From Nitrospirota bacterium (GTDB lineage: Bacteria; Nitrospirota; Thermodesulfovibrionia; SZUA-242): a DNA stretch of 64,000 nucleotides. Below are positions 34,558 to 50,814 of the stretch, in pieces; positions within the stretch are counted from its first letter, which is position 1, and each line of letters starts with the position of its first letter. A model generated the notes under the pieces. The model was not told the DNA's origin. It did no database searches and worked only from the letters and a program-made list of their open reading frames with translations. A program made the position numbers and the translations under genes. The stretch covers positions 7,482 to 71,481 of the forward strand of contig JACRHH010000024.1 of NCBI GenBank assembly GCA_016212095.1, read 5' to 3'.

Positions 34558-34956
34558 TTAAAAAGCCATGGAACGGACGATATGCTTTTCGAGAAAGAGA
34601 TTCAATGCGGCGGATTGATCCTGGCTCAGTTCCCCGAATTGAAGCCCGCAACGCCGCGTATGAACTCCCTGAACAAACATGCTCTGCCCGTATGGAATTG
34701 TGGCGTCATACACGACCTGGCATGGAATCTGTGACAGGTAAAACGCCTCAGGCGTCATAATTATGTCGATTTTTAACTGTTCATGACCGTTAAGCTTGTC
34801 GGTAAAACCGTCGAATTCCAGATATTCGAAGGCAAGTCCGGTATGGCTGATGTCTTTTATCTGCCCAAGCTTGTCGCAATAAGGTTTTAAGAGCGCAAAT
34901 GCCAGATCCTTTGCGGGATACCGTGTACTGCGCCGTTGTTCAGATGTAGTAACCAT
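34558..34956 (-). CDS. PilZ-domain protein (putative c-di-GMP receptor)
   Basis: RRSTRYP (RxxxR) and DISHTGLAF (DxSxxG) PilZ motifs. Start ATG 34956 with RBS AAGGAGGG. Longer ORF to 35016 starts at TTG. Confidence 0.7.
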   Translation of the reverse strand: MVTTSEQRRSTRYPAKDLAFALLKPYCDKLGQIKDISHTGLAFEYLEFDGFTDKLNGHEQLKIDIIMTPEAFYLSQIPCQVVYDATIPYGQSMFVQGVHTRRCGLQFGELSQDQSAALNLFLEKHIVRSMAF

Positions 34957-35384
34957 ATCGACCCTCCTTGCAACCATTGCCGAGGTGCGGGACAAGATAG
35001 CCAGTCCTCTCAACAATATGATGACGACTAAAAGTTTCCCTCAGTGCTAAAGTCACAATTACCAGAATTAAATGTTATTTATTTAGCAAATGACATGCCA
35101 GTGCAATGTCAAGCTGTTAAAACAAGTAGTTATGCAGCAGCCTGCGGATTGTATCAGACTGTAATGTAAATTATTCCGACACGTTAATCATGTCGGGCAT
35201 TGCCATTCAAATCGATGACGTTTGTCGCTAACTGTTGACCAATCCATCAGAATTTACCATTATTGCCCTCCGGGCTGAATAAACTACTGGAAACACCAGC
35301 TCAGGCAATACTTGTGATCTGAAACGACGTGGCATTGCATGAGGAGCATGTAAGATATTCCGACACAAGCATTCTGATCGTATG

Positions 35385-35454: not shown

Positions 35455-37860
35455 CTACTTGTTTTCGACCATCTCCCAGATGCCGCACGGACAGATGCCA
35501 GCGCAAAATCCGCAGCCGATGCACTTGTCGGCGTCAACCACATACTCGAACGCGCCGTCCTTGCCCTCCACGCGGCTTATCGCGCCCCAATAGCAAGTTA
35601 CCTCGCACATGTGACAGTCGCGGCACGAGCCGCACGACATGCACTTGTTCGCCTCGGTAACCGCCGAGAACTCGCCTATGCGGCAGACGTCGTAGTAGGC
35701 TGTCCTGATCTTCTCATACGAAATGACGTCCTTCACCTCGGAGAGATAATCGAAGTTCATCAGCATCGAATGGATCTTGTCCGCCGAGATGCGCCCCGCG
35801 CCGATTGCGTGCGTCACGAGGCCGGGCCTCGTCACGTCGCCTATCGCGAAGACCTTCGGATCGGACGTCTGGCCGGTTTCGTCAACTGTAACGTAGCCGC
35901 GCCCGGTCTGGATGTCGGCGGGCAGGAAATCGATCACCGGTGTTTCGCCGATCGAGATGATCACGTTGTCAGCCGGAAGCGACGAGCCGTCCTTGAAGAT
36001 GATTTTCTTCTTCTTTTTGTCGAACCTCTCGGTGAACTTCGGATAGAGAATCTGCGTTCCCTTGGCGGTGGCCGACTCCATCTCCTTGCCGAATGCCGCC
36101 GGAGCCTGAATATCCACAGCCGTAACGGACTTCGCGCCAAGGCTCCAGGCTTCGCAGGCTATGTCCATGCCCACGTTGCCGGCGCCGATCACAACCACGT
36201 TCTGGCCCTTGAGCTTCATCGGGCTTCCGGCGTTGATCTCCTTCAGGAAATCTATTCCGGCAATCACGTCCTCGTGGCCGTCAAACGGAATGACGCGCGG
36301 CCTGTGAGCGCCCACGGCAACCACAACCACGTCGTGATCCTTGTAGATTTTGTCGAATTTCTTTTTATCCACAGGATGATTGGCGTACACTTTCACGCCC
36401 ATCTCTGCGAAACGCGATATCTCCTTGTCGAGCACCTCAGCGGGCAGACGCTCGCGCGGAATGCACATCTCTATTTTTCCGCCGATTTTCTTGCCGGCCT
36501 CGTAGAGGTCGATTTCATGGCCTTTCAACGCCAGTTGCCACGCCGCCGAAAGTCCGCCCGGCCCGCCGCCGATAACCGCGATCTTCCTGCCGGTGGCTTT
36601 TGCCTTCTTCGGAGCCGGAATTTCGAGGCTCAGGTTGCCGAGGCTTTTTATGTCGAGCGGCTTGTCGAACCTGCCGCGCGTGCATGCGTCCATGCAGATG
36701 TTCGGGCATATCTGGCCGCAGACGGTTGCCGGAAACGGGCTGTACTGAAGCACGAGCGCAAGCGCGTCTTCCATGCGGTTCTGGCGGATGAGGCTCAGAC
36801 GCTTGTGAGAAGGAATATGCGAAGGACATGTTCCGGCGCACGGCGGCTGATACTTCTCGTTGTTCCAGACAGGCCGGTTTCTGCGGTCGCCGCCGGTGGT
36901 GATGTACGGCAGCACCGAGCGCGGATGGTCGAGATACTCGCCGAATATGCCGCCCTTGCCGACATCGGCCTCCCACGTTTTCATGCGGAAGGTTTCAATC
37001 GACGGCTTGCCGCCCCCCTTCTTCGCCGCCTTCTCGGCAGGCGTGTAGGCCACCAGTTTTTTCCATTCGCTCCTGTCGCGTGTGAGCTCCGCCTCGTAAG
37101 AGTCGCGCTGAATCGCCTTCAGGTATGGCTTCATGTTTTCGGTGAGCCACTCCCAGTCGGCGTCGGAAAGCTCCGAAAGCTTCACGTCGCCCGCGCTGTA
37201 GCCCTGAATCGGCCCGCGAAAATATATCGTGCCGCCCACCATGCCCACGCATGGCCTGTATCCAAGGATATTGTCCGGATTGCGCGGGTGTACGCCGCAT
37301 ACAACCGCTATTCCGCCCGCCTTGAATTCGGCGAACGAGTCGCCAACGTCGCGGAAATACCACGACTGAAGCGGCTCGAAACGGGGGTTGCGCTTGGTCA
37401 TCGTCTCGCAGCGCGCGCCGCCTCCGCCCTGAACGTACAGGATTCCCTGAGCGCCCGCGTTATGCGCGCCGTTGGTCACGTCGCCAAGCACCGTGATCTT
37501 CGCGCCGCAGTTTATCCACCCCACGTCGTCGGAGGCGTTTCCATGCACCACAATCTCGGTTCCGTCCATGCCCATGCAGCCAAGGCGCTGTCCGGCAGGG
37601 CCGTTTACCGTGATGCGAACCGCCTCGCCGCGCGGCCAGATTCGTCCGCCAATTCCGTGCTGCCCCTGCGCGATTACAGAAAGCTCGCGCGCACCGGCGG
37701 CAACAGCCGCCTGAATGCGCTCTTCCAGTACACGCGATTGAACGCGCTCGCCGCCGATATTCCCCTCTATAATCAAGGCGTTGCCGGATTTTACCGTTGA
37801 TCTGCCCGACTTTTTCACTGTTTTCTTTGAAGCCGCCATATTCTTGCTCCTAACAGGCAT
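35455..37860 (-). CDS. glutamate synthase-like fusion protein: GXGXG (GltB C-terminal) domain + GltD-like NAD(P)H/FAD oxidoreductase + C-terminal 2x[4Fe-4S] ferredoxin
   Basis: GXGXG domain (...CGAKITVLGDVTNGAHNAGAQGILYVQGGGG). Dinucleotide fold IAVIGGGPGGLSAAWQLA. C-terminal CIGCGFCAGICP. Confidence 0.8.
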   Translation of the reverse strand: MPVRSKNMAASKKTVKKSGRSTVKSGNALIIEGNIGGERVQSRVLEERIQAAVAAGARELSVIAQGQHGIGGRIWPRGEAVRITVNGPAGQRLGCMGMDGTEIVVHGNASDDVGWINCGAKITVLGDVTNGAHNAGAQGILYVQGGGGARCETMTKRNPRFEPLQSWYFRDVGDSFAEFKAGGIAVVCGVHPRNPDNILGYRPCVGMVGGTIYFRGPIQGYSAGDVKLSELSDADWEWLTENMKPYLKAIQRDSYEAELTRDRSEWKKLVAYTPAEKAAKKGGGKPSIETFRMKTWEADVGKGGIFGEYLDHPRSVLPYITTGGDRRNRPVWNNEKYQPPCAGTCPSHIPSHKRLSLIRQNRMEDALALVLQYSPFPATVCGQICPNICMDACTRGRFDKPLDIKSLGNLSLEIPAPKKAKATGRKIAVIGGGPGGLSAAWQLALKGHEIDLYEAGKKIGGKIEMCIPRERLPAEVLDKEISRFAEMGVKVYANHPVDKKKFDKIYKDHDVVVVAVGAHRPRVIPFDGHEDVIAGIDFLKEINAGSPMKLKGQNVVVIGAGNVGMDIACEAWSLGAKSVTAVDIQAPAAFGKEMESATAKGTQILYPKFTERFDKKKKKIIFKDGSSLPADNVIISIGETPVIDFLPADIQTGRGYVTVDETGQTSDPKVFAIGDVTRPGLVTHAIGAGRISADKIHSMLMNFDYLSEVKDVISYEKIRTAYYDVCRIGEFSAVTEANKCMSCGSCRDCHMCEVTCYWGAISRVEGKDGAFEYVVDADKCIGCGFCAGICPCGIWEMVENK

Positions 37861-39505
37861 AGCTTATCCCCAGACGCTCGGCTATGGCCCTGTCGGCCAC
37901 CGAGAGGCCGTCGGACATGCCGATTGGAAGTTCGGTGGAACGCCCCATCGGAGCGAATATTTTTTTCAACTCAACGTCGGCAACGCGGAATACGTCCACC
38001 ACGCGCTGGGCCACCATGTCGGGGTCGAGCCTGCGATAGAGGCGCGGATCCTGCGTTGTGATTCCGCGCGGGCAGCGCCCGGTGTTGCAGAGGTTGCAGC
38101 GGTTATACTCGTCGCCCAGGCAATTGCCGGCCGACTGCATGATGTACTTGCCGATGTCAACGGCTGACGCGCCGAGCATTATCATCGCCGCAGCGTTTGC
38201 GGCCAGATGGCCGCCCTTGCCCATGCCGCCCGCCGCGATAAGCGGAAGCTCGTTCTGCTTGCCCTGGCTAACCAGATCGAGGTAGCACTCGCGGATGTTC
38301 GAGGCGATGGGGTGTCCCATCTTGTCCATCGAAACGTTGTATGCCGCGCCTGTTCCGCCGTCCTCGCCGTCGATGCAGAGAGCGGCGGCGTATGGATTGC
38401 GGGCCAGATTGTTCAAAACCGCGCGCGCCGTCTTTGAGCCGGATATTTTCGGATAGACCGGCACGCGGAAGCCCCAAGCCATCGACATCGCCTGAATCAT
38501 CTTGGCGACAGCCTCTTCAATCGAGTATTTGGTCTGATGAGTTGGCGGAGAGGCCAGATCGATAAACTCCGGAACTCCGCGAATCTTCGCGATAAGTTTC
38601 AGAACTTTGTACGCCATCAGAAGTCCGCCGTCGCCCGGCTTCGCGCCCTGGCCATACTTGATTTCGATTGCCGCCGGGTCTTCCTTCATGTCGGGAATCG
38701 CATGAACGATCTCGTCCCAGCCGAAGTAACCGGAGGCAATCTGAAGAATGAAATACTTCGCAAAACGCGATTTCAGCAGCCGCGGCGGCAGTCCGCCCTC
38801 GCCGCTGCACATCACAACCGGCATGCCCTCAACCTCGTTCAGGTAGGCAACGCCCATCGCAAGCCCTTCCCACATTGTCGGGGAAAGCGCGCCCACAGAC
38901 ATGCTGCCTATGCGGATCGGGAAAATTTCGCGCACCGGCGGGATGAACTTCTCGTTCATCTTCACAAGCTTGCCGTCTTTCACCGCAAGCGGAAGCTCCT
39001 CAGGCGGCAGGATGCGGCCCAGAAGCGAACGAACGCGGAACTCGTGGCGTCCGGCGTCGAGCGCCGGATCGGTGAGCATCGAGATGCGGGTGAACTTCAG
39101 CTTGTCAACAGTCGAGATGGACGGATCGTTCCTGCGTCCGCCGCGCTTGAAGGCGTCGCCCTTCTTGTTCTTGTAGATCAGGAAACGGTTGTGCGAATTG
39201 TAGACCGGCTTGATCGCCTCCGCCGGGCATACCAGACTGCATGTGCCGCAGCCGGTGCAGTAGCGGTCTATGTCGCGCGATTGAACAACAACATGGCGCG
39301 TGACCTTTTTGCTTGTCGGCATGGGCGATGCGCCTTCCGATTCCACCAGTCGCTGGGCCGCAACCGACGGCGTGATAGCCTTCACCGGGCAGACGGCGGT
39401 GCATTTGCCGCAGCGCGTACAGCGGTCTTCCCGCCACTCGATGATATACGGGAAATCCTGTATCGACAGATCGTAGTTGCTGTCTAGTTGCGAAGCTGGT
39501 TCCAA
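37850..39505 (-). CDS. glutamate synthase FMN-binding (GltB central) domain protein with N-terminal 2x[4Fe-4S] ferredoxin
   Basis: CTRCGKCTAVCP and CTGCGTCSLVCP. FMN-domain body (GAKPGDGG..., AAGGMGKGGH). Putative TTG start at 39505 with GAGGAGGTGA RBS overlapping the upstream stop. Confidence 0.75.
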   Translation of the reverse strand: MEPASQLDSNYDLSIQDFPYIIEWREDRCTRCGKCTAVCPVKAITPSVAAQRLVESEGASPMPTSKKVTRHVVVQSRDIDRYCTGCGTCSLVCPAEAIKPVYNSHNRFLIYKNKKGDAFKRGGRRNDPSISTVDKLKFTRISMLTDPALDAGRHEFRVRSLLGRILPPEELPLAVKDGKLVKMNEKFIPPVREIFPIRIGSMSVGALSPTMWEGLAMGVAYLNEVEGMPVVMCSGEGGLPPRLLKSRFAKYFILQIASGYFGWDEIVHAIPDMKEDPAAIEIKYGQGAKPGDGGLLMAYKVLKLIAKIRGVPEFIDLASPPTHQTKYSIEEAVAKMIQAMSMAWGFRVPVYPKISGSKTARAVLNNLARNPYAAALCIDGEDGGTGAAYNVSMDKMGHPIASNIRECYLDLVSQGKQNELPLIAAGGMGKGGHLAANAAAMIMLGASAVDIGKYIMQSAGNCLGDEYNRCNLCNTGRCPRGITTQDPRLYRRLDPDMVAQRVVDVFRVADVELKKIFAPMGRSTELPIGMSDGLSVADRAIAERLGISYAC

Positions 39506-40596
39506 ACCGTCACCTCCTCGGCGTTGGGCGAAATGATGACCATGTCGTACTTCATCGGGTAGATGTCGGTTGACTGATCGCGCTCCGGAATCGCCCGCGT
39601 GATGCCGCATTCCTCCGACATGAGCGCATACTTGCCCTTCACGCCGCCGACCGCGCCGGGCCGGAGTTTCTTTGAATCCTGAACCATGAAGACAGTGCCG
39701 TCGGGCGTGAAGCCGATCACGCAGTTCGGGCCGTCGATGCATAGCGGACGGAGCGATTTTTTCATCAGCCCAAGCGCCTCGCGGTCGCTTCGCCCCTCGA
39801 TCTCGCTGTCCTTGAGCGGCGTGATCACATCTTTATAGTAATTAAGCGGAAAACCGAGCGTCCGGCAGGTGTAGTGCAGGATGTGGGTGAAAACCTCGCT
39901 GTCCGAGTTGTAGCCTATATAGCCGGGGTTGCCCCGGCTCATCAGGAATTCGCGGATCGGCACGAAGGCGGTGTTCTCGCCGTTGGTCATCGATGCGTAG
40001 CCCTGAATGAAAAACGGGTGACAGGCGTACAGGTAAATTGCGTAGTTGGTGTTCTGGCGGCCTTGCGCCAGCGCGATTTTGGCCTTCAGGGAATCGGACT
40101 TGTCGAGGCCGAAAAACTGGGCAACCTCAAGCGGATCGCCAACTTCCTTAAGCGTAAGCACGTCGGGGTAGAACGAAAACGCGAATATCGACTGATCCGG
40201 TTCGCCGATTGCGCGAAGCTCAAGGCGGGTGCGCATGAGCAGGTCTTCCTTCTCGGACATCGGCCTGTCGCGCCACTCTTCCGGATATTCGTATGCCTTG
40301 GCGATGTAGAAATCGCGTTTCTGTATGCCGGGCATCGGCTTGATCCTGGGCGTCCACATATGCTTAACGCGGAAGCCCTTCGACTTCATGAAGTCGTCCA
40401 GAAGGGTCATGCCCTTCTGGGAGCATATGCCCGAAAGGATCGGATACTCCTTCAATCCCTCGAAATCCCCGCCAAGGTTCTTGAGCATCAGCCCAAGCCC
40501 GGAGCCGTCGTGGCCTTCCTTCATGGTTTCGAGGGCCATGATGGTTTCCATGGGCGAGAAATAGTCACTGGCTGTAATAGCGCTCAAACGGCACAT
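39484..40596 (-). CDS. class-II glutamine amidotransferase (GltB N-terminal domain-like, archaeal-type glutamate synthase subunit)
   Basis: MCRLSAI N-terminal Cys1 nucleophile directly after Met. RBS GAGGTGA. Confidence 0.8.
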   Translation of the reverse strand: MCRLSAITASDYFSPMETIMALETMKEGHDGSGLGLMLKNLGGDFEGLKEYPILSGICSQKGMTLLDDFMKSKGFRVKHMWTPRIKPMPGIQKRDFYIAKAYEYPEEWRDRPMSEKEDLLMRTRLELRAIGEPDQSIFAFSFYPDVLTLKEVGDPLEVAQFFGLDKSDSLKAKIALAQGRQNTNYAIYLYACHPFFIQGYASMTNGENTAFVPIREFLMSRGNPGYIGYNSDSEVFTHILHYTCRTLGFPLNYYKDVITPLKDSEIEGRSDREALGLMKKSLRPLCIDGPNCVIGFTPDGTVFMVQDSKKLRPGAVGGVKGKYALMSEECGITRAIPERDQSTDIYPMKYDMVIISPNAEEVTVWNQLRN

Positions 40597-40957
40597 AATT
40601 TCACCTCGTCGTGTTTGGGAGAACACCGGAATGCCGCAAAATCGCGTAGTGCCGGAACATCTCCAGACAGCTAGATAATTTATTACAAAGGTGGAAGTTC
40701 AGTCAAATTCAGGGCAGAAGCGGAATTAGCCGCATGTTGATACGTTTTTCTTGACTTCCAGCAAAACCGGCGGCTATTTTACGGCATCCGTGCGGTATGC
40801 CAAGGGGGGGGAGCAGTGCAGGATAGTCTCTGGCGGCAGCGAAAAATTCAACGAGAAACCGCCTGTCTATTCTGAAATAAGCCTTCTCTGGCCGGCTGGT
40901 GGCGGGAGATTATTGTGGCGATCGGATAAGCCCGGCTGCAATCAGGCCCATACAAGC

Positions 40958-42274
40958 TCACATCCCCTCGCTCATCGCCTTTTTCGACACCTTCCACGGA
41001 TTCCATGGGTCTTCGTAGGAACGCTTGTAGAAGAACTCAAGCGTGTAGGCCACCGTCCGCACAACCCGCAGGTAAAGTCCGGCGTAGAGCGGCGCGAGCG
41101 GGAGGTAGATGAAGAGCTTCACATCGTTGCGCCATCTTTCCGAGAGCGAGAGCATCACGATGAACTGAAGCAGGTTGAACGAGAGGTAGATGAGATAGTT
41201 CATCGGGATGATGAACTTCAGCATCGAGTGGTAGTTGTAGGCCATGTCGGCCATGTAGACGAACCACTTTATGTCGAGCACCACGTTGAAGAAGATGTTT
41301 TCAACAAACGAGAAAAAGTTTGAGAAAGAGAAGTTCTCGGTAGGCAGATACACATCCTTGTGCTTGCGAATGCGGAACCGCACCAGCGATTTATACCACC
41401 GAAGGCGCTGTTTCGTAAGCCCTGTGTACGTGGCCGGAGCGGTGGTGAAGCAGATGGCGGTCTTTTCGAAATGAATCTTGTAGCCGATCTTTCGAATCTT
41501 CACCGTAATGTCGCCGTCCAAACCGGGGCCGATGTCCCAGCCTCCCACGCGGTCGAGAATCTCGCGCCGGAACGCGCCGAATGCTCCGGGTATCACCCGG
41601 TAGATCCCCAGAAACGAGGCCACAGCCCGGCCAACAGAGATCGATTTCAGATACTCGACAGCCTGCATGCTGGTGCAGACGCTCTCGTCGGCGTTTCTCA
41701 CCTTGATATTGCCGCCTATTGCGCCGATCTCGTCGTCCATGTAGAACGGAACGAGGATGTTTTCAACCGCGTCGCGGTCGAACGACGAGTCGGCGTCAAG
41801 CAGAAGCACCAGCCCGCCTTTCGAGTACCGCAGGCCCAAGTTCGACGCCGACGCCTTTCCGCCCCTGATCTCGCTTCGCAGGTAGACGTCCAGAAAGCCG
41901 TTTTCCTTCAGATCGTCGCAGATGGTCTTGGTGTCGTCGTCCGAGCCGTCGTCAACCACGATGATTTCGAGGTTCTTGTACGTCTGCTCCCTGAGCGAGC
42001 GCACGAGCTTGTAGATGTTCTCGCCCTCGTTCTTTCCGGGAACTATCAGCGAAACCAGCGGAAGTTCGTCGAACAGCGCCTTTCTGGCCAGCCGCTCCCT
42101 GTTTCTGCTTGCAAAGCGCTTGACATGATACGCGCCCAGGAATACGAAATCGAAAACCACGTATCGCGGGAATTCCAGTATGAACGCGAACCAGAAGAAC
42201 CGGACGAGCTTGTGCGGATCGACGGTCTGCCAGAAGTTGAAGAACTCCAGAATGGGGTCTATGAAATCGTCCAT
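40958..42274 (-). CDS. family-2 processive beta-glycosyltransferase (NodC/chitin-synthase/PgaC/cellulose-synthase-like), multi-TM
   Basis: LVSLIVPGKNEGENI, DDGSDD (DxD), QRLRW (QxxRW) processivity motif. N- and C-terminal TM helices. Confidence 0.8.
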   Translation of the reverse strand: MDDFIDPILEFFNFWQTVDPHKLVRFFWFAFILEFPRYVVFDFVFLGAYHVKRFASRNRERLARKALFDELPLVSLIVPGKNEGENIYKLVRSLREQTYKNLEIIVVDDGSDDDTKTICDDLKENGFLDVYLRSEIRGGKASASNLGLRYSKGGLVLLLDADSSFDRDAVENILVPFYMDDEIGAIGGNIKVRNADESVCTSMQAVEYLKSISVGRAVASFLGIYRVIPGAFGAFRREILDRVGGWDIGPGLDGDITVKIRKIGYKIHFEKTAICFTTAPATYTGLTKQRLRWYKSLVRFRIRKHKDVYLPTENFSFSNFFSFVENIFFNVVLDIKWFVYMADMAYNYHSMLKFIIPMNYLIYLSFNLLQFIVMLSLSERWRNDVKLFIYLPLAPLYAGLYLRVVRTVAYTLEFFYKRSYEDPWNPWKVSKKAMSEGM

Positions 42275-42278
42275 GCAA

Positions 42279-43682
42279 TTATGGCGGGGCGATTTTGCCC
42301 ACGAAGGCGTCGAGGCTGAATTCCCCGGAAATTGGTACTATTTCGGTTTCGATCTTCGGTTCGAAGCCTGTGAAGTTGTCGTGGATCAGTTTGAGCAGAT
42401 TAGCCTTCAGCCGTTCCACCGGAATGCTTGCGGCCTCCAGAGGCGTGTCCGTGAAGAAGAACAGCAGCGTTGCCTCGTCGAGGTAGGAGATCATGTCGCT
42501 TGGCCGGATGCTGCCCTTTATGATCTCGATGATCTCCGGGAATATCTTTTCCCTGGTAACGCCCCGCACATAAAGATCGTAGAAGTTCACGAAATGCAGA
42601 TGGGCGACGCAGCCGTTTCTGGCCACGCGCTTGAAGCGCTCCACCTCGTATTCGATGTATTTGTTGAAGATGCCCATGTCCACAAGGCCTGGAATGCGTA
42701 TCACGTCCTTCATCGAGATGGTCACGCCGTATATGGCGGCGTGCTCGCCCTTCGATGTGAGCCGGTAGCTTTTCACGTCTTTTTCGATGAGGTTTTCTAC
42801 CAGAGTGTCGTTCTTGCAGTTGAAACAGAAGGCGCGCACCTTCGGATCCTGAAATTTTTCATTGCAGGTATTGCAGAAGTTGAGCGTGGCCGGCTTGTCG
42901 TAATCCACGCCGATGTGGCGCACCAGCCTGCCGCACTTGGGGCATATCATGTCGGCGCCCTCCTGCTTCCGGAAGTCGCTTTCCGGGCCGACGTAGGCGC
43001 AGGTGAAGTGATGCACGAGGTCTTCGGTCTTCAGGTTCGGGCCGCCGCACTTGGGGCAGGCCTCCCTGAAATTCAGGAATCCGCTGAAGCACTTGTCGCA
43101 AAGATGAATCCTGTCAACGAAAGTCCCCTCGATAAGGGTTTCGTGCTCGGCCATGTCGATGATGCTGAAGACGCGATGCTGATCCTCGCGGTCGAAGTTC
43201 ACCGAAACAAGCGGAAAGCTGTACCCGACGCGCGAACACGAATCGAGAACCGGCTCCATAACCATCTCCCTTGTGTAGAGAAACCGCAGCATCTTCATCA
43301 TGACGTACATCTCGAACGATTCGGTCTTGATGAGCTCCAGCCTGCTGATCCTGTCCTGAAGGTTTTTCATCCTGTAACCGATTTTCGACATTACAGCCGG
43401 ATCGATCTCTCCGTCGGAGAGCGCAAGAAGCGAGGCGTCCTTCACGCCCTCGTGAGATATGAGAAAAACCGGCTTCAGATATATGTTGTTCAGATCGAAG
43501 GTTCTCAGGCGCTTCAGGATGACGCGGGCGGCGTCGGTGTCGGTTGCGTCAAGCACCACGCCGTTATACTTGATGAACGTCTGCGCGTTAATCTCGTCCG
43601 GCTCGGAGAACGAAACCAGTTCAACCTCCTCGTTGCTGTTGTTGAACGAGGAGCCTTCCCGTATTATCTTGCTGATGCTCAT
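42279..43682 (-). CDS. Zn-ribbon-rich protein with C-terminal degenerate GGDEF domain (SYLDEA replaces RYGGDEF; RxxD I-site retained): candidate c-di-GMP receptor of the synthase operon
   Basis: Three CxxC...CxxC pairs (CDKC...CPKC, CPKCG..., CNTCN...CFNCK). C-terminal 170 aa align with the GGDEF fold (IPGLVDMGIFNKY... / RPSDMISYLDEATLLFFFTDTPLEAASIPVERLK). Confidence 0.6.
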   Translation of the reverse strand: MSISKIIREGSSFNNSNEEVELVSFSEPDEINAQTFIKYNGVVLDATDTDAARVILKRLRTFDLNNIYLKPVFLISHEGVKDASLLALSDGEIDPAVMSKIGYRMKNLQDRISRLELIKTESFEMYVMMKMLRFLYTREMVMEPVLDSCSRVGYSFPLVSVNFDREDQHRVFSIIDMAEHETLIEGTFVDRIHLCDKCFSGFLNFREACPKCGGPNLKTEDLVHHFTCAYVGPESDFRKQEGADMICPKCGRLVRHIGVDYDKPATLNFCNTCNEKFQDPKVRAFCFNCKNDTLVENLIEKDVKSYRLTSKGEHAAIYGVTISMKDVIRIPGLVDMGIFNKYIEYEVERFKRVARNGCVAHLHFVNFYDLYVRGVTREKIFPEIIEIIKGSIRPSDMISYLDEATLLFFFTDTPLEAASIPVERLKANLLKLIHDNFTGFEPKIETEIVPISGEFSLDAFVGKIAPP

Positions 43683-43700: not shown

Positions 43701-44750
43701 CTATATCGATTTCCGTAGAAAAACCTTCACGCTCAGTTTATAGTACTGCTTCCACTCAAGCCCTGCCTCCCTGTTTGGCGGCTCGATGTCCACGACAACC
43801 GTCCGCTTCACCGGCTCGTAACGCTTCTGGAACTCAGGCGGCAGGGGCTGGGTGGCGAAATAGTATCGTCTTATCACCCCGGTTGCCCGCGTGCCGTCAG
43901 GAAACCGAATTGAAACCTGCGCGCCGTTTCGCAGGTGCTTAATGTCCTCCTGCTCGAAAAACGCCTTTATTGCAATCTCTTCGGGCTTGTATATCTCCAT
44001 GATGGTGTCGCCCTTGAGCACAACCTCGTGGTCGTTGGGGTAGATGCGCGTCACCACGCCGTCTTCCAGCGCCAGGAATGTCTTTGCTCCGGCGGCAGAC
44101 TGGGCGGACTGCGCGGCCTGCCAGGCTTGCAGGTTTCTTGCCGATGCCGTTGCATTGATCCCGCGTATCCGGCCCAGATACTCCTTCATGATTCTTATCT
44201 CTTCGCCCGCCTTCGCGACAAGCGATTCGGTGTTTCTGATGCTCTCGGCCATTTCGCCAAGCCTGCCCGGATAATGCGCGTCGAGCAGCGCCTGGTTTTT
44301 AATCGTATCGTAGCCTGACTTGAGCTTTGCAAGCGATTCCTCGTAGCCTTTCCTGTCCAGCTCCCTGAGTTGGATGGCCTGAATCGTGCGGGAAATTTCC
44401 CGCTCGATGTCGGGCGAATAGAACGAGCTGTCCGATGCCTGCCGGAGGGCTGCATCGCCGCGCGATTCCTCCGCGTATGTGAAAAGCCTGTCGTTTCGCT
44501 TTACGGACGCGCCCTCCTTCACGAATATCTTCAACACCCGGATGTCGCTTGTATGCTGGATGTAGAGCTTGTCGAATATCACCTGCCCGTCGCCTTCGGC
44601 ATGGATCGAGCTGTCGATGAAGTAAAAGATGACGCTGATGACAATCAGGCCCAGCACCAGGAAATAGATATACTTGCCCCAGTTGCGCTTTCGCTCAGGC
44701 GGCTTTTCGTCGGTCGATCTGAAATAGCTGAACCGCTTGTTGAGTCTCAT
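43701..44750 (-). CDS. HlyD-family periplasmic adaptor (membrane fusion protein)
   Basis: N-terminal TM anchor, lipoyl-like and coiled-coil segments. C-terminal beta-barrel segment. Confidence 0.75.
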   Translation of the reverse strand: MRLNKRFSYFRSTDEKPPERKRNWGKYIYFLVLGLIVISVIFYFIDSSIHAEGDGQVIFDKLYIQHTSDIRVLKIFVKEGASVKRNDRLFTYAEESRGDAALRQASDSSFYSPDIEREISRTIQAIQLRELDRKGYEESLAKLKSGYDTIKNQALLDAHYPGRLGEMAESIRNTESLVAKAGEEIRIMKEYLGRIRGINATASARNLQAWQAAQSAQSAAGAKTFLALEDGVVTRIYPNDHEVVLKGDTIMEIYKPEEIAIKAFFEQEDIKHLRNGAQVSIRFPDGTRATGVIRRYYFATQPLPPEFQKRYEPVKRTVVVDIEPPNREAGLEWKQYYKLSVKVFLRKSI

Positions 44751-44754
44751 CCTG

Positions 44755-46890
44755 TTACTGCCGCCTTTGTAGTGGAAGCGCCTCGTTCATGCTCTTCTCG
44801 TCAAGCTCGATCAAGCCCTGCATGTCATGCACAGCCACTCGCGAAACGCCGGTTGCGTCGATCACCTTGCCGATGAATTCCTCCATCTCAAGCCGGTTTG
44901 CGAAATCCTTCGTCCGTATCGCGATGACTGTTTTTGGGCCGAAGGCGTCAATCTCCTCGCGCACCTTCCGCTTCAGCTTTTCGATGTCGGTTATCTCGTA
45001 GGCCATCACATATATCCTGTCGGCAAGCGAAGCGATCTGCCGCAATGTTTCCTCCGGGAAAAAGACAGGAATCGATACGCCCAGTTCCAGCTTCGCCGCG
45101 GAAGTTGCCTCCCGCGCCGCCTTGAGCATCGCAATGAAGGCCGCAAGCAATTCATCTTTCTTCTCCCTCCACTCCGGAAGCGTATGCGGCTCAACGTCGA
45201 GATGAACGCCGTCGAAGCCGAGCGAATGGGCCTGTTCGGCTATTTGGGCAAGCTTGGCGTGGTTTGCGGGACGTACAAGCTCGTTCGATCCGGCAAGCGC
45301 GTCTGTTTTCATGCCGCTCTCTCGCGCCTTTGCAAGTAACGCGGAAAGCCTGCCGGTGTCGGTTTTTTCGCCGATGGACAGCATTACGCCGCGCATCTCC
45401 TGATGCGCAAGATACATGGCAAGGAAACCGGTATCGATGCCGTTTACAGCCGCCGACCAAACGTATATTGATCGCTCGCCGCGATAACGCTCCGGCTCGC
45501 CGGGATTTTTCACGACGGCAACATGATCGAACACCGCCTCGCCGCCGGAAATCCGCTGAATTTCCAGCAGTTTCAGATATAGCATCTGCTTGACCTCTAC
45601 GCTCTCGAACTCCACGGCGAACTGTTCGTCCAGATACTGCATCATGTTCAGCGGGCTGTAGAGCGGATCGTCATACCCGCGTCTGACATCCTCCCTGCGT
45701 ATGCGTTCCCCGATCAGCCGCTTCTTGTGCGCGAGCTTCAGGTAATCGCTCATCTTGTACTGATATTCGTAATACGCGTCGCGCAGACGGTTCAGGTCGG
45801 CTTCGCGCCGTTTTTCCGCGTTCAGTTCGGCAAGCCTCTCCTCGATGTCGCCTATCTTCGAGTAATCGCGCCCGGACGCCGGAATCGGAACGCGGATGCT
45901 GACTCCGGCGGCCACGCTGTCGCGCATTCCACCGGCGAAAAGGTTGTCCATGTTGTAGCGGGCGAATACGCGCAGATTTGTTTCGGCAAGCAGATAATTG
46001 TCAGGACGCTTCAGCCGCTGCTTCTCGGCGTCGATCACATCGCCGTAGAACGGGTCTTTTTCCGCATCGCCAAGCAACGCGCCGATGTCGATGTCAAGCA
46101 CAGGCAGGTCTTTAGCGGCATCCGGCAGTTCCATTTCAGGTGTCGGCGCAAAAGTTCTGTTGAAGTTCAGGTAGTTGCGAAGCATTGTCTGGACGGAGGC
46201 CTTTTCCTGCTCAAGCCGGATGACATCCTCCCACTGAAACAGCCTGTAATGGCCCAGCTTGCGGGTGATTTCGATGTATCTGCCAAGCTCGTCCAGCCGT
46301 TCCTGAAGCATCCGCATCTTTGCAAGATTGAACAGGTAGATCGCGCGGTAGTAACTTCGCCCGAACGATTCGTCAACAGCCGCCCGCCGCGCCAGAACCT
46401 CTGCAAGCCTGATCTCGCCGCGCAGTCGTTCCTTCTCCGTGCCGCCGCCGAAATAGCCGTCTTTAAGCAGCTCCCATTCAAGCCCCAGATACGACGAACT
46501 GTCCAGCGTATCCCGCGCCTCATCGATCACCCCGTTTTTCAGGTTTGTGGCATACGATCCGGTGAGTTTCAGGCCAAAATCTTTTTCGATGGATGCGAGC
46601 CGTTCGATTCCGATCCTGCGCCTTAGTTCCTCCCCGGTCTCGCCGGCTGATGTCCCGGCCAGGAATCTTCTTGCGTTTTCAAGCTCGTTGCCGACTGGCG
46701 GCTCGCCGATGGTCAGCCTGGAATCGATGATGCGCTCGATTTCCTGAAAAAGACCTGCCGCGCTGCCGGTATTGGCCGAATTGGCGGCTTCGGCAGTATC
46801 CGCCGCTTCCACCTGAACTGCCTGAACTGGAACAACGCAGGCCAGAAACGCCAGCGCGGCCACAATAATTGCCTTCCATCCATGGAACAT
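44755..46890 (-). CDS. TolC-like outer-membrane factor fused to a C-terminal GH18-like (chitinase-fold) domain
   Basis: Signal peptide MFHGWKAIIVAALAFLACVVPVQA. OMF-like alpha/beta repeats in N-terminal 420 aa. C-terminal FDGVHLDVE (DGxDxDxE-like) and YVMAYE (MxYD-like) GH18 signatures. Start uncertain (ORF open to 47064). Confidence 0.55.
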   Translation of the reverse strand: MFHGWKAIIVAALAFLACVVPVQAVQVEAADTAEAANSANTGSAAGLFQEIERIIDSRLTIGEPPVGNELENARRFLAGTSAGETGEELRRRIGIERLASIEKDFGLKLTGSYATNLKNGVIDEARDTLDSSSYLGLEWELLKDGYFGGGTEKERLRGEIRLAEVLARRAAVDESFGRSYYRAIYLFNLAKMRMLQERLDELGRYIEITRKLGHYRLFQWEDVIRLEQEKASVQTMLRNYLNFNRTFAPTPEMELPDAAKDLPVLDIDIGALLGDAEKDPFYGDVIDAEKQRLKRPDNYLLAETNLRVFARYNMDNLFAGGMRDSVAAGVSIRVPIPASGRDYSKIGDIEERLAELNAEKRREADLNRLRDAYYEYQYKMSDYLKLAHKKRLIGERIRREDVRRGYDDPLYSPLNMMQYLDEQFAVEFESVEVKQMLYLKLLEIQRISGGEAVFDHVAVVKNPGEPERYRGERSIYVWSAAVNGIDTGFLAMYLAHQEMRGVMLSIGEKTDTGRLSALLAKARESGMKTDALAGSNELVRPANHAKLAQIAEQAHSLGFDGVHLDVEPHTLPEWREKKDELLAAFIAMLKAAREATSAAKLELGVSIPVFFPEETLRQIASLADRIYVMAYEITDIEKLKRKVREEIDAFGPKTVIAIRTKDFANRLEMEEFIGKVIDATGVSRVAVHDMQGLIELDEKSMNEALPLQRRQ

Positions 46891-47030
46891 GATCTGTCCG
46901 AATAACCTCTTAACTTCATTATCGTTTTTTTGCTGGATTTCTTGAGCGGAGAAGGTGAACTCTTGTTCCGGCGTCATGCTAAGATTAAATCCATGAGACT
47001 CTCTTGTTTCGGGAATGGAGGAGTACTTGC

Positions 47031-47267
47031 ATGGTAATGATTGAAGCAACCGTGGTTGACCCAACCCATTTGGAACTCGCGCAGCCCATCGCGGCGCTTC
47101 GAGGCCAGACTATTTTGGTTTCTGTCGCAGATATGCTTGGAGAGGATTCTGAGCGGCGAGATTGGCTGGATGTTTCAACCATATCGTTGCAGGCTGCGTA
47201 TGGCGATTCCGAACCCGACTACTCGCCTTCCATGGTCAAAGAGAACAATCCGGATTACGTTGCATGA
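47031..47267 (+). CDS. mazE: MazE/AbrB-like antitoxin
   Basis: Small acidic C-terminus, SpoVT/AbrB-like N-terminus (MIEATVVDPTHLELAQPIAALRGQTILVSV). Stop overlaps the toxin start (ATGA). Confidence 0.6.
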   Translation: MVMIEATVVDPTHLELAQPIAALRGQTILVSVADMLGEDSERRDWLDVSTISLQAAYGDSEPDYSPSMVKENNPDYVA

Positions 47268-47605
47268 AGGAAGCCGATATCATTCTCATGCCTTTGCCTC
47301 AGGCTGACGGGATAGTTAAAAACCGTCCGGCGCTTCTGCTTCGCGAGCTTCCGCCGTTTGGCGACTTCCTTGCCTGCGGCATCAGTACCCGGTTGCATCA
47401 AGCCGTTCCCGGATTTGACGAGATAATATCCGAAAACGATGCGGATTTTGCGGACTCCGGCCTTCTTACAGACTCTGTTGTGCGCCTTGGATTCCTGGCT
47501 GTTCTGCCACGAGAACGAATCCGTGGCACCATAGGCCAAATAGCTCCCGCGCGCCACTCCCGTCTGCTGGTGAAGCTCAGCAAGTATTTGGTGGCCAAGC
47601 TCTGA
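47264..47605 (+). CDS. mazF: MazF/PemK-family endoribonuclease toxin
   Basis: DIILMPLPQADG..KNRPALLL...GDFLACGISTR matches PemK/MazF. Confidence 0.8.
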   Translation: MKEADIILMPLPQADGIVKNRPALLLRELPPFGDFLACGISTRLHQAVPGFDEIISENDADFADSGLLTDSVVRLGFLAVLPRERIRGTIGQIAPARHSRLLVKLSKYLVAKL

Positions 47606-47648: not shown

Positions 47649-48863
47649 ATGAAATTTGATAAATCAATGCGCGTAAAAACAGGCATCGACCGGATTAATC
47701 AGCGCTTTCCCGCGCAGCTTCGCGCCTGCCGCGTTGGCTTGCCGCGCGCCTGCCGCGTTGGTCTAATCGCCCATCAGGCGTCTGTCGATTGCCGTCTGCG
47801 CCATGCCGCAGACATCTGCCTCGCCTCGAAGAATTTCCGCCTGGCCACCCTGTTCGGCCCGCAGCACGGGTTCACCGGACACACTCAGGACAACATGATC
47901 GAGTGGCATGGATTCCGCGATCCGCGCACCGGGCTTCCGGTTTACAGCCTCTACGGCGAAACGCGCAAGCCGTCGCCCGACATGCTGGACGGCATCGACG
48001 CTCTTGTCATCGACATGCAAGACGTTGGCGCGAAATATTACACATTTATATGGACGATGGCGCTCTGCATGGAGGCCGCCGCCGAGGCGGGCAAGGCGGT
48101 GGTTGTGCTCGACCGCCCGAATCCGCTTGGCGGCGCGATGGAAGGCCCGGCAACCAGGCCTGAATGGGCGTCGTTCGTGGGCCTGAAACCGCTTCCGGTT
48201 CGCCACGGCATGACGATTGGCGAGATAGCGCTTTATCTCAAGGGCGAGTTCTATCCTTCTGTCGATCTCACGGTCATTCCCATGCGTGGCTGGCGGCGCG
48301 GGATGTATTTCGATGAAACCGGCCTGCCGTGGGTGATGCCGTCGCCCAACATGCCCACGCTCGACACAGCGATTGTCTATCCGGGCATGTGCCTGCTCGA
48401 AGGAACCAACATCAGCGAGGGGCGCGGCACCACGAGGCCGTTCGAGCTGTTCGGCGCGCCGTTTATTGATTCCGCCCGGCTTATCGCCCGGCTGAACGAT
48501 TTCCGGCTTCCGGGTGTTTTCTTCCGCCCAGCCTCGTTTCTGCCCACGTTTCAGAAACATGCCGGAGAACTCTGCGGCGGGGCGCAGATTCATGTAACCT
48601 CGCGTCGGGCGTTCAAACCGTTCAAAACCGCAGTGGCGATCCTGAAAGCAGTTCGCGAGCTCTGGCCGGATGAACTTAAATGGAAAGAGCCGCCGTACGA
48701 GTACGAGTCTGAAAAGCTGCCGATAGACATACTGGCCGGAAGCGACCGGCTGAGAATGGGGATAGATTCGGGCGAGGGGCTTGACGCGATGGAGAGATGG
48801 TGGGCCGCGGAATGCCGCAGCTTCGCGCGGCGATATGCGGAGAGGTATCGATTATATGAATAG
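47649..48863 (+). CDS. namZ: DUF1343 / NamZ-like exo-beta-N-acetylmuramidase
   Basis: DUF1343 body (RVGLIAHQASVD..., GIDALVIDMQDVGAKYYTF...). Contains an in-frame 21-bp tandem duplication near the N-terminus. Confidence 0.7.
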   Translation: MKFDKSMRVKTGIDRINQRFPAQLRACRVGLPRACRVGLIAHQASVDCRLRHAADICLASKNFRLATLFGPQHGFTGHTQDNMIEWHGFRDPRTGLPVYSLYGETRKPSPDMLDGIDALVIDMQDVGAKYYTFIWTMALCMEAAAEAGKAVVVLDRPNPLGGAMEGPATRPEWASFVGLKPLPVRHGMTIGEIALYLKGEFYPSVDLTVIPMRGWRRGMYFDETGLPWVMPSPNMPTLDTAIVYPGMCLLEGTNISEGRGTTRPFELFGAPFIDSARLIARLNDFRLPGVFFRPASFLPTFQKHAGELCGGAQIHVTSRRAFKPFKTAVAILKAVRELWPDELKWKEPPYEYESEKLPIDILAGSDRLRMGIDSGEGLDAMERWWAAECRSFARRYAERYRLYE

Positions 48864-50814
48864 ATCGGGCGGTTTTACCGCCTTCATTCCGGCAGCCGGT
48901 TTCGGCACGCGGTTGCGGCCCATAACCAATCACATGCCCAAGGCTCTTTTGCCTGTAATCGGCCAGCCGCTTGTCGGGCTTGTTGCGGCGCGTGTGGTTG
49001 AGGCGGGTGCATCTGCCATTGGCATAAATGCGCGTCACCTGCCGGATATGATTGCGGCATGGGCGGCGGAGTTGGAGTATGCAAAACTCATAACGCTGTT
49101 TCGTGAGCATGAGGTTCTTGGCACAGGCGGAGCCATATGGAACGCGCGCGATTTCCTGCGCGGCGACTACTTTCTGCTTCACAACTGCGACATCCTCTCT
49201 GACATCGATCTGCGGCGGCTGATCGCGCATCACGAGGCGTCCGGCAACCTGATAACGCTTGCGGTGCATGACAGGCCGGGGCTGAATAATCTGCGATTGA
49301 ACCCGGACGGCTTGCTGGTGGGTGTGGAGAGAAGCAACTCCCCCCTTGCCCCCCTCAATGAGGGGGGTGGCGAAGCCGGGGAGTTTGCCACTACAACTCC
49401 CCCCTTTACAACTCCCCCCTTGCCCCCCTCATTGAGGGGGGTGGCGAAGCCGGGGGGAGTTTCTTCTTCCGCCTACACCGGCATCGCCGTCTATTCCCGC
49501 CGGTTCATCGATTACCTGCCCGTCGGCCCGTCCGATGTGGTGGCCGGATGGCTTCGAGCGGCTGCCATCGGTGAGAGAATCGGCGCGCTCGATTTCACCG
49601 GATGCTTCTGGGAAGACCTCGGCACGCCAGCCGCCTACGCCTCCGTTGTCTGGCGGATGCTCCGCGCCGAAGGCGAACGCGCGTTTTTCAATCCCGCAGC
49701 CAGGGGCTGCAACATGGCGGCGCTCATGGGCATGGCGTCGGTTGAGGCGGGCGCGCGAATAACCGGCCCGGTTACGTTCGATCATGCAATCGTGCTTCCT
49801 GGCGCGAATATCGGCGGCGGCGAGGCAGTGATGGAGGTAATTGCCAACTCAATCGCCGGGCCGGATTATCGAATAGCCATACCGCCGCCCGATGACGCCG
49901 GCAATGTTAGCGGCGGCGGTTCAGACCGGGTTTACCGGCGCGTCCGGCGTGATGGCGGCACGGTTATTTCGATGTCAACTAGCTCAACCGATCCGGATTA
50001 CGAGCGCCAGATTGCGTATTCAAGATATTTCGCCGCGCGAGGTATTCCGGTTCCGAGGCTGATCGACGCCGACGCCGATGCGCGAACAGCCGTTTTCGCC
50101 GATCTTGGCGACCGCTCGCTCTACACATTCGGCAAATGCGCCGAAGCGCGCGGGCTTGTCGAGCCGGTTTATCTGGCGCTGATGAAAACAATGGCGCAAC
50201 TCCACGCGCCGTTCGATGCAGAAGCCGCTCCGGCGTTCCGGATGTTCGACTACGAGCATCTTCGATGGGAAACCTATTATTTTTTAAACGAATTTGTGCG
50301 CGGGCTTTGTGGCATGGAACCTGCTGATCCGAAGCGTCTGGACGCCGAATTCCATGCGCTTGCCGTGAAGGTGGACGGCTTCGGCAAGCGGATTGTGCAT
50401 AGAGACTGCCAATCGCAGAACATCATGCTTGCGCCCGATGGCTCCCCGTATCTCATTGACTATCAGGGCGCGAGGCTCGGCCCGCCCGCCTACGACATGG
50501 CGTCGCTTCTGTGGGATCCGTATGTGCCGATGCCGGATGATATGCGCGAAAGGCTGGTTTCGGCGTATGAAGCCGCGCGGAAAGAGAACGAGGGCGCGGC
50601 GTTCGACATGGCCGAGTTTCGTGCGTCGCTTCTGCCATGCCGCCTCCAGCGCCACATGCAGGCGCTTGGGGCCTACGCGTTTCTGTCCGGAAAGAAGGGG
50701 AAGACGTATTTCAGGAAGCACATCCCGGCGGCGGTTGAGATGCTTCGCGCCGAGGCGGCTCTGGTTGCGGATGAGATGCCGGAGTTGGCGGGGGTTGTGA
50801 GGGGGCTGAAGTAA
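48856..50814 (+). CDS. fused N-acetylmuramate-1-phosphate uridylyltransferase (MurU-like NTP-transferase) + N-acetylmuramate/N-acetylglucosamine kinase (AmgK-like APH-fold), with two MITE-like repeat copies inserted in-frame in the MurU domain
   Basis: AAGFGTRLRPIT NTP-transferase motif. Domain resumes after the insertion (YTGIAVYSRRF...WEDLGTPAAY). Kinase motifs HRDCQSQNIML, IDYQGARLGP. Start ATG 48856 overlaps the namZ stop. Confidence 0.75.
   Translation: MNRSGGFTAFIPAAGFGTRLRPITNHMPKALLPVIGQPLVGLVAARVVEAGASAIGINARHLPDMIAAWAAELEYAKLITLFREHEVLGTGGAIWNARDFLRGDYFLLHNCDILSDIDLRRLIAHHEASGNLITLAVHDRPGLNNLRLNPDGLLVGVERSNSPLAPLNEGGGEAGEFATTTPPFTTPPLPPSLRGVAKPGGVSSSAYTGIAVYSRRFIDYLPVGPSDVVAGWLRAAAIGERIGALDFTGCFWEDLGTPAAYASVVWRMLRAEGERAFFNPAARGCNMAALMGMASVEAGARITGPVTFDHAIVLPGANIGGGEAVMEVIANSIAGPDYRIAIPPPDDAGNVSGGGSDRVYRRVRRDGGTVISMSTSSTDPDYERQIAYSRYFAARGIPVPRLIDADADARTAVFADLGDRSLYTFGKCAEARGLVEPVYLALMKTMAQLHAPFDAEAAPAFRMFDYEHLRWETYYFLNEFVRGLCGMEPADPKRLDAEFHALAVKVDGFGKRIVHRDCQSQNIMLAPDGSPYLIDYQGARLGPPAYDMASLLWDPYVPMPDDMRERLVSAYEAARKENEGAAFDMAEFRASLLPCRLQRHMQALGAYAFLSGKKGKTYFRKHIPAAVEMLRAEAALVADEMPELAGVVRGLK
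49337..49462. repeat. two tandem copies of the nested-palindrome GC-rich element (ACTCCCCCCTTGCCCCCCTCA(A/T)TGAGGGGGGTGGCGAAGCCGGGG(GG)AG) inside the murU-amgK coding sequence: 126 nt, 42 codons, in-frame
   Basis: Read directly. Same family as 22427-22540. Translates as SPLAPLNEGGGEAGEFATTTPPFTTPPLPPSLRGVAKPGGVSSS. Confidence 0.85.

Follow-up and report, generated by a model that had tools for sequence, protein, structure and literature searches.

The question raised by this locus is what a degenerate diguanylate cyclase does in the middle of a polysaccharide operon. The window (the whole 64,000-nucleotide stretch that was analyzed, from contig JACRHH010000024.1 of a Nitrospirota bacterium, assembly GCA_016212095.1) carries, at 42279..43682 on the minus strand, an open reading frame (ORF) of 467 amino acids (aa), here called the regulator. 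A preliminary description, made from the DNA letters alone, had proposed that this protein is a receptor for cyclic di-GMP (c-di-GMP) rather than an enzyme. Our results favor the same answer: the regulator is probably the c-di-GMP receptor subunit of a tripartite exopolysaccharide system, that is, a dead cyclase which has kept its inhibitory site (I-site), and it is most likely the on-switch of that machine because it lies in a polysaccharide operon that is conserved across several phyla. The receptor assignment is supported by two sets of sequence comparisons: (i) the GGDEF domain was found to be degenerate in 262 relatives; and (ii) two further I-site arginines, R424 and R352, were conserved together with the RxxD motif, from which binding of the messenger is predicted. 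The regulator is identical to a protein annotated by NCBI as 'hypothetical protein' in a Nitrospirae metagenome-assembled genome (P0001). No hydrophobic segment was detected (the maximum 19-residue Kyte-Doolittle mean was 1.1) and no transmembrane segment was found; thus the protein is predicted to be cytoplasmic and soluble. Its layout consists of an N-terminal CheY-like pseudo-receiver (aa 1-118; 43329..43682, minus strand), a TackOD1 domain (aa 128-308; 42759..43301, minus strand) with a helical part and three Zn ribbons, and a degenerate GGDEF domain (aa 320-467; 42282..42725, minus strand). Of these domains, TackOD1 (PF18551) provided the sole strong Pfam match.

The C-terminal region was found to have the fold of a GGDEF domain, as had been proposed. 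An AlphaFold2 (AF2) model of the regulator, built on 104 relatives (predicted local distance difference test, pLDDT, 91.8; predicted template modeling score 0.77), was searched by Foldseek against the PDB, and the top matches were exclusively diguanylate-cyclase GGDEF domains (probability 1.0, E-value 5e-7 to 1e-4), with template modeling scores of 0.6-0.69 to isolated GGDEF domains. When a family profile was compared with solved structures, 24 matches were returned, every one of them a GGDEF-domain protein, including the cyclases 3IGN (E-value 2.6e-12) and DgcR (6ZXM; E-value 5e-12). Likewise, 33 of the 104 relatives reached Pfam GGDEF (PF00990) at an E-value ≤ 0.01. For the regulator sequence taken alone the GGDEF matches were weak, at E-values of 0.05-0.2 across the PDB and NCBIfam; the NCBIfam matches were to the DgcR and SiaD cyclases (aa 331-432, E-value 0.06-0.2). 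The homology to GGDEF domains is therefore established through the family, as the profile matches solved cyclases and a third of the relatives match PF00990. The pairwise and profile alignments were both free of gaps from before the I-site to past the active-site hairpin, which fixed the register of the two sites. R393-P-S-D396 (42495..42506, minus strand) was aligned with RQSD of 3IGN and with RKSD of DgcR (R206xxD209), by the pairwise comparison and by the family profile alike, and the DgcR I-site mutant entry 6ZXB, which represents DgcR R206A/D209A (PMC8041772), differs from the wild type exactly at the residues aligned to R393 and D396. The GG(D/E)EF position, aligned without gaps to GGEEF of 3IGN and DgcR, is occupied by D402-E-A-T-L406 (42465..42479, minus strand), and the spacer between RxxD and this pentapeptide, MISYL, has the canonical five residues. 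The preliminary description was thus right that the active site is degenerate and that RPSD lies at the I-site, while its reading of the active site as SYLDEA (residues 399-404) was three residues out of register, given that the ungapped alignment places GGEEF on D402-E-A-T-L406, and its RxxD spacing of four residues upstream is corrected to five.

The residues needed for catalysis were found to be lost. Compared with 3IGN, the regulator has lost the D-x-D metal site to a deletion and has Val in place of the FK lysine, Tyr in place of the guanine-binding Asn, and Glu in place of the guanine-binding Asp. In addition, GG[DE]EF was present in none of the 262 relatives collected. Because the metal- and GTP-binding positions are lost and the motif is absent from all of these relatives, the domain is catalytically dead across the family and unable to make c-di-GMP. 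The hairpin that stands in place of GGDEF was observed to have a family motif of its own, N-x-[SN]-T-[LF], with the Asn in 71 and the Thr in 54 of 104 sequences. This family-wide motif suggests that the hairpin, although dead as an active site, has gained a new and conserved function, possibly in protein contact.

In contrast to the active site, the I-site appears complete and under selection, as judged from residue conservation. Residue equivalences were derived from chain positions counted in HMMER alignments together with the numbering of the DgcR paper (PMC8041772). By this count, R393 and D396 correspond to DgcR R206 and D209, the RxxD of the primary I-site, and R424 (42411..42413, minus strand) corresponds to DgcR R237, the third primary-site residue, which the same paper equates with PleD R390. 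R352 (42627..42629, minus strand) was matched by pairwise alignment to 6ZXM with DgcR R163, the secondary I-site arginine, an equivalence that concerns position in the sequence rather than geometry. In DgcR the secondary-site arginine is donated by the helix of another GGDEF domain, and with it the site that holds an intercalated c-di-GMP dimer is complete (PMC8041772). In WspR this role falls to R198, and the R198A protein is free of nucleotide when purified (PMC2270323). PelD likewise needs R367, D370, and R402 for c-di-GMP binding (PMC8461298), R402 being the counterpart of PleD R390.

These positions were also the ones that distinguish the clades of the family. All 467 alignment columns were ranked without reference to the I-site, with two I-site-bearing clades defined on a tree of the TackOD1 region only. 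The top three clade-separating columns of the 467 were R424, R352, and R393, which were 100% conserved in both I-site clades and present in 4%, 8%, and 18% of the sequences outside them, respectively; D396 was likewise 100% conserved in both clades. Within the larger clade, no more than five columns of the GGDEF domain were invariant, namely R352, R393, D396, and R424 plus E346, in a domain where the mean frequency of the top residue is 0.44. Since the I-site residues do not vary between deeply diverged clades, in a domain that averages 44% column identity, their conservation is beyond what is expected by chance. The full set of four residues was detected in 35 of 181 sequences, while just one sequence had three of the four. 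A deep search of 1.8 billion cluster representatives recovered 398 family members at an E-value ≤ 1e-30, and the full set was found in 65 of the 142 best representatives covering the columns (clusters at ≤ 50% identity). The raw association of R393 with R424 was strong (Fisher p 2e-17), a value inflated by shared ancestry. R424 and R352 were conserved together with RxxD solely in clades from phyla that use c-di-GMP. R352, R393, D396, and R424 may thus serve as a simple sequence rule that separates the members likely to respond to c-di-GMP from those that do not. As members of one orthologous family have either all four residues or almost none of them, built-in negative controls are available for the gain, loss, or swap of a messenger input on a fixed output.

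The genes that surround the regulator were examined for the machine that it may control. Directly downstream is a gene (40958..42274, minus strand) for a processive glycosyltransferase family 2 (GT2) synthase of 438 aa (Pfam Glycos_transf_2 E-value 1.5e-28). The best models for this protein were PgaC/IcaA, NodC, and chitin synthase; it carries the Q(R/Q)xRW motif of such synthases (as QRLRW), scored an E-value of 5e-52 against TIGR03937 PgaC_IcaA, yet below the cut-off of that model, and matched hyaluronan, cellulose, and chitin synthases in the PDB. Upstream is a gene (43701..44750, minus strand) for an HlyD-like membrane-fusion protein, or periplasmic adaptor, of 349 aa (Pfam HlyD_3 37.7 bits, cut-off 22.2), with weak NCBIfam matches to type_I_hlyD and RND_mfp. 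It is preceded by a gene (44755..46890, minus strand; start as in P0121) for a 711-aa protein which has a signal peptide, a half similar to TolC-like outer-membrane factors, and a C-terminal TIM barrel that resembles glycoside hydrolase family 18 (GH18). The homologue search for this protein returned 7 sequences, and the AF2 model built on them had a pLDDT of 65 as a whole and of about 90 for the barrel. By Foldseek, the N-terminal half of this low-confidence model matched TolC, OprN, VceC, and CmeC at an E-value of about 3e-6 over about 430 columns. The barrel matched GH18 chitinases and an endo-beta-N-acetylglucosaminidase among generic TIM barrels, with a Pfam GH18 score (26.7 bits) just below the cut-off of 29.6. 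It carries G-V-H-L-D-V-E-P-H (45184..45210, minus strand), a motif similar to the GH18 DxDxE, and in the corresponding family motif G-[IVL]-H-L-D-[IV]-E-P-H the H and D were invariant and the E was found in 79 of 80 homologues.

The order of these genes on the minus strand is the TolC-like/GH18 fusion, the HlyD-like adaptor, the regulator, and the GT2 synthase, and the genes of the operon abut or overlap: 18 nucleotides (nt) separate adaptor and regulator, and 4 nt lie between the regulator stop codon and the GT2 start. This agrees with the earlier placement of the gene between synthase and export genes. The same order and strand were found in about 80 loci of at least four phyla, in essentially every locus with sufficient flanking sequence; the loci examined were from Bacteroidota, Desulfuromonadales, Deltaproteobacteria, Aminicenantes, and Campylobacterota. 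A relative was present in at least 569 species-representative genomes, and environmental Bacteroidota were a particularly frequent source of the system. When the operon was scanned for promoters and terminators, nothing exceeded the shuffled expectation. Taken as a unit, the four genes resemble a separate synthase-dependent export system that brings its own channel, a TolC-like protein fused to a glycosidase-like barrel.

Based on these findings, a mechanism may be proposed. The machine would consist of the inner-membrane PgaC-like GT2 synthase, the HlyD-like periplasmic adaptor, and the TolC-like outer-membrane channel fused to the GH18-like barrel, with the regulator as a cytoplasmic subunit that controls the synthase post-translationally. 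The degenerate GGDEF domain would bind an intercalated c-di-GMP dimer through R393, D396, and R424 of the primary site and R352 at the secondary-site position; this mode of binding is favored because conservation of the secondary-site arginine accompanies that of the primary site. The c-di-GMP dimer would bridge two GGDEF domains, as it does in DgcR, PleD, and WspR. Since the secondary-site arginine of active cyclases is supplied by a second GGDEF domain, cross-linking of two regulators or a re-packing of domains seems the likeliest consequence. The invariant Zn-ribbon module of TackOD1 may then relay the change to the GT2 synthase and thereby turn on both the making and the export of the polymer.

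Several observations weigh against the regulator being a c-di-GMP receptor of this kind. First, the regulator sequence alone gave no match to Pfam GGDEF at an E-value ≤ 1. Second, parsimony on the TackOD1-region tree required about three independent transitions of the I-site set, so that phylogenetic inertia may account for part of the pattern; with so few transitions, the argument rests on long-term invariance within deep clades and on joint loss. Third, most of the family, namely the Bacteroidota members, keeps the degenerate GGDEF domain yet lacks the arginines; the domain must therefore have a role apart from c-di-GMP, and the I-site could be an accessory that matters little. Fourth, no diguanylate cyclase or phosphodiesterase gene was found by a motif scan of the 64-kb window. 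Fifth, the contact between regulator and synthase is one that we infer from gene order. Finally, the TolC-like assignment of the exporter half comes from a low-confidence model (pLDDT < 50 for residues 1-152). As to the use of the messenger by this organism, the window does encode a PilZ-domain protein, which indicates that c-di-GMP is used: an ORF of 152 aa at 34558-35016 (minus strand), 7 kb from the operon, with RRxxR ... DISxxG motifs and a Pfam score of 23.6 bits (cut-off 22.5). This protein is a candidate for a second, independent c-di-GMP receptor.

Two of these points, the third and the fourth, favor the explanation that ranks as the most serious rival, in which the regulator serves the structure or assembly of the export machine and takes no part in sensing c-di-GMP, the degenerate GGDEF domain is a protein scaffold, and the arginines contact, for example, the synthase or an acidic lipid. 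It is consistent with the lack of a cyclase gene in the window and with the Bacteroidota members, which were without all three arginines and nonetheless keep both the degenerate GGDEF domain and the hairpin motif N-x-S-T-[LF]. We consider this explanation unlikely for two reasons: (i) the clade-distinguishing residues coincide exactly with the four c-di-GMP contact positions of DgcR, PleD, WspR, and PelD; and (ii) the four residues appear and vanish together, and their presence tracks the phyla that use c-di-GMP. The taxonomic argument covers the named subset of the sequences. In that subset, the full set was carried by members from Nitrospirae, Deltaproteobacteria/Desulfuromonadales, Aminicenantes, Nitratifractor, and Methyloprofundus; roughly 80 Bacteroidota members were without the three arginines. 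R352, R393, and R424 were also missing together from a sister clade that has a canonical receiver and no RxxD. An early (2005) census found the first Bacteroidetes genomes to be without diguanylate cyclases (PMC1183210), and with respect to that census the loss of the I-site in Bacteroidota fits a messenger that is not in use.

The central domain of the regulator was considered as the candidate output. TackOD1 was matched at 177.5 bits (cut-off 32; E-value 2.6e-52; aa 128-308) and was present in all 104 family members. It was defined, with a function termed obscure, in a study whose description of the Cys pattern fits the sequence here (PMC5847659). The three CxxC...CxxC pairs reported in the preliminary description were located inside this domain, with the refinement that one half-pair begins with histidine: five CxxC (at 195, 209, 247, 270, and 286) and one HxxC (at 225), with 11 Cys in all, form three four-ligand Zn-ribbon pairs, C195/C198-C209/C212, H225/C228-C247/C250, and C270/C273-C286/C289 (42816..43100, minus strand). 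These ligands were invariant or nearly so in the family, and TackOD1, including its HIGVDYDKP motif, was the best-conserved part of the protein. It is tempting to extend the proposed mechanism to the family as a whole. In this broader, tentative hypothesis, which we hold to be possible rather than probable, TackOD1 would be the effector of a widespread and hitherto unnoticed family of tripartite exopolysaccharide machines (at least 569 species genomes) whose Zn ribbons gate the synthase directly, with the inputs swapped on one chassis: a complete I-site in Nitrospirota, Desulfobacterota, Campylobacterota, and Gammaproteobacteria, a phosphorylatable receiver in the sister clade, and neither in Bacteroidota. 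If true, this would be the first function for TackOD1 and would offer a natural set of variant on-switches attached to a single secretion machine. A functionally obscure Zn-ribbon domain is here tied to a concrete machine.

The same domain could instead make the regulator a c-di-GMP-responsive transcription factor, in which the Zn ribbons of TackOD1 bind DNA and control the operon or other genes. Zn ribbons often bind nucleic acid, weak PDB matches to the Zn finger of reverse gyrase were detected (E-value 0.08), and archaeal TackOD1 is an output domain of response regulators, sometimes with a winged helix-turn-helix domain (PMC5847659). However, no recognizable DNA-binding domain was identified in the regulator, and its conserved place inside the operon, with junctions of 4 nt and 18 nt, in about 80 loci of several phyla is the pattern of a stoichiometric subunit. 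Moreover, the characterized degenerate-GGDEF receptors of polysaccharide operons all act post-translationally. Control of transcription is thus improbable, and a subunit that responds to c-di-GMP within the machine is preferred.

A further possibility is that the N-terminal domain is the true input and the I-site a relic, which would make the regulator a response regulator controlled by phosphorylation. The domain that had been noted to precede the Zn ribbons was indeed found to have a CheY-like receiver fold, and D45, at the end of the third strand, was kept in 128 of 181 relatives. In addition, the neighboring clade on the tree, which sits in the same operon as the query clade, has a fully canonical receiver (DD pair, acceptor Asp, Thr, and Lys-Pro; Pfam E-value down to 1.2e-24). 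On the other hand, no Pfam REC match was obtained with the query alone, and no profile similarity was found to the canonical receivers of the sister clade (hhalign probability 0.3%). By MAFFT alignment, the query clade is apparently without the acidic pair after strand 1 and has Asp or Glu in place of the lysine of K-P (D94-P95 in the regulator), a mapping of receiver residues that is tentative because it is unsupported by hhalign. The domain is termed a pseudo-receiver since it has the receiver fold without a sequence match and apparently without the phosphorylation residues. Across the clades, a canonical receiver and the I-site were found to be mutually exclusive, and phosphorylation is therefore a very improbable input for the regulator. 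As the sister clade combines a canonical receiver with the absence of RxxD in the same operon, the sensory input of this system appears to be interchangeable. An RxxD-like R60-T-F-D63 (43492-43503, minus strand) was observed in the pseudo-receiver and was kept in five of the six query-clade sequences compared, perhaps by chance; it recalls BcsE, where a second RxxD in a degenerate receiver holds a second c-di-GMP. The sister clade also has an extra ORF of 107-119 aa just upstream of the regulator gene (L085 1-15461, L086 6615-6974).

That the regulator is an unorthodox but active diguanylate cyclase, or a GTP sensor, is scarcely credible and was rejected on residue evidence, for although some cyclases tolerate variant motifs such as AGDEF (title of PMC3974145), the regulator has DEATL at this position, its aligned catalytic residues are either deleted or replaced by V, Y, and E, and GG[DE]EF occurs in 0 of 262 relatives.

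That a polysaccharide operon can employ a dead cyclase as its I-site receptor is an established principle, known from PelD, PssE, and BcsE; I-site receptors with a degenerate GGDEF domain also include PopA. The regulator is predicted to function like PelD, PssE, and BcsE, yet it belongs to none of their families, and no pel, bcs, or pss genes were found nearby. PelD of Pseudomonas aeruginosa has four transmembrane helices with a GAF and a degenerate GGDEF domain, whereas the regulator is soluble and has a pseudo-receiver and TackOD1 instead; the PelD system relies on the GT4 enzyme PelF and on export through a tetratricopeptide repeat/porin route, in contrast to the GT2 synthase, adaptor, and TolC-like route here. 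No sequence-level match of the regulator to PelD was detected, nor were transmembrane segments, a GAF domain, or pel genes identified in the regulator or operon. BcsE of E. coli-type cellulose systems ('GIL', a degenerate receiver followed by a degenerate GGDEF domain) shares several features with the regulator: both proteins are soluble and cytoplasmic, belong to a GT2 system, and combine a degenerate receiver with a degenerate GGDEF domain that carries RxxD; in BcsE this RxxD I-site binds c-di-GMP. The differences are that BcsE begins with a dead ATPase-like domain, lacks a Zn-ribbon module, works through BcsRQ and BcsF together with a synthase that bears PilZ, and places its degenerate receiver, which supplies the second RxxD, directly beside the GGDEF domain, while in the regulator TackOD1 lies between the two and the synthase is without PilZ. 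PssE of Listeria monocytogenes resembles the regulator in having a degenerate GGDEF domain (motif DKDDA) with RxxD five residues upstream and in being encoded in an operon, pssA-E, with a GT2-type synthase. It binds two c-di-GMP per protein (dissociation constant 0.8 uM) and is essential for polysaccharide synthesis, and the logic used there for prediction is the same as that used here. PssE differs in being a Gram-positive, membrane-anchored protein with a single domain beyond its transmembrane part and with no receiver, TackOD1, or outer-membrane export parts. YdaK of Bacillus subtilis is comparable to PssE.

Other systems share the machine or the domain rather than the receptor. The BgsA/BgsB/TolC mixed-linkage glucan system of Sinorhizobium and, in cyanobacteria, the efflux-pump-like variant of cellulose secretion likewise use an inner-membrane GT2 synthase, an HlyD-like adaptor, and TolC, and are activated by c-di-GMP (PMC13438883). 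In these systems, sensing of the messenger is built into the synthase, through the BgsA C-terminus or PilZ, and the TolC gene is a housekeeping one that is shared and located elsewhere; here, the sensor would be a separate protein and the TolC-like channel is encoded in the operon and fused to a GH18-like barrel. The archaeal response regulators that combine a receiver with TackOD1 have the same TackOD1 downstream of the receiver (PMC5847659), but they have no degenerate GGDEF domain, and the loci to which they are linked are those of type IV pili instead of a glycosyltransferase operon. No description of the regulator or of its operon was found in the literature searched, a search of incomplete coverage directed at TackOD1, at Zn ribbons with a degenerate GGDEF domain, and at the combination of adaptor, TolC, GT2, and GGDEF. 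What is new here is the domain architecture, the link to TackOD1, the fusion of channel and glycosidase, and the natural series of variants with an I-site, a receiver, or no input.

The polymer made by the system is suggested to contain N-acetylglucosamine by the GH18-like barrel, by a LysM domain in one sister-clade locus, and by a deacetylase-like neighbor. The LysM domain is carried by a large outer-membrane protein of locus L085, in which the whole cassette was found to be tandemly duplicated, and the neighbor is a gene with a weak polysaccharide-deacetylase match that adjoins the cassette in one Bacteroidia locus. In Nitratifractor, the GH18-like barrel is encoded by a separate 247-aa gene directly after the GT2 gene (L004 10722-11465), and since it is unfused there, the barrel is an independent module of the system.

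Several features were observed outside the operon. Downstream of the GT2 gene, at 35455-40626 on the minus strand, are three adjoining genes that resemble a split, archaeal-type glutamate synthase: (i) a GXGXG/FAD-NAD oxidoreductase with Fe-S; (ii) a Glu_synthase core with ferredoxin domains; and (iii) a 380-aa protein that starts with Met-Cys and had no Pfam match at an E-value ≤ 0.001. On the opposite side of the operon, 47004-47605 on the plus strand holds a PemK/MazF-type toxin gene (47162-47605) preceded by an overlapping small ORF (47004-47267) which is likely the antitoxin. As the long ORF 44755-47064 overlaps this toxin-antitoxin pair, the true start of the 711-aa gene is taken to be the Met at 46890, in agreement with NCBI. 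Beside the operon and on the opposite strand (47649-50814, plus) are genes for a NamZ exo-beta-N-acetylmuramidase and a fused nucleotidyl-transferase/APH-type kinase, the latter of which we take to resemble the MurU/AmgK enzymes of amino-sugar recycling. These genes could feed the pools of UDP-amino sugars.

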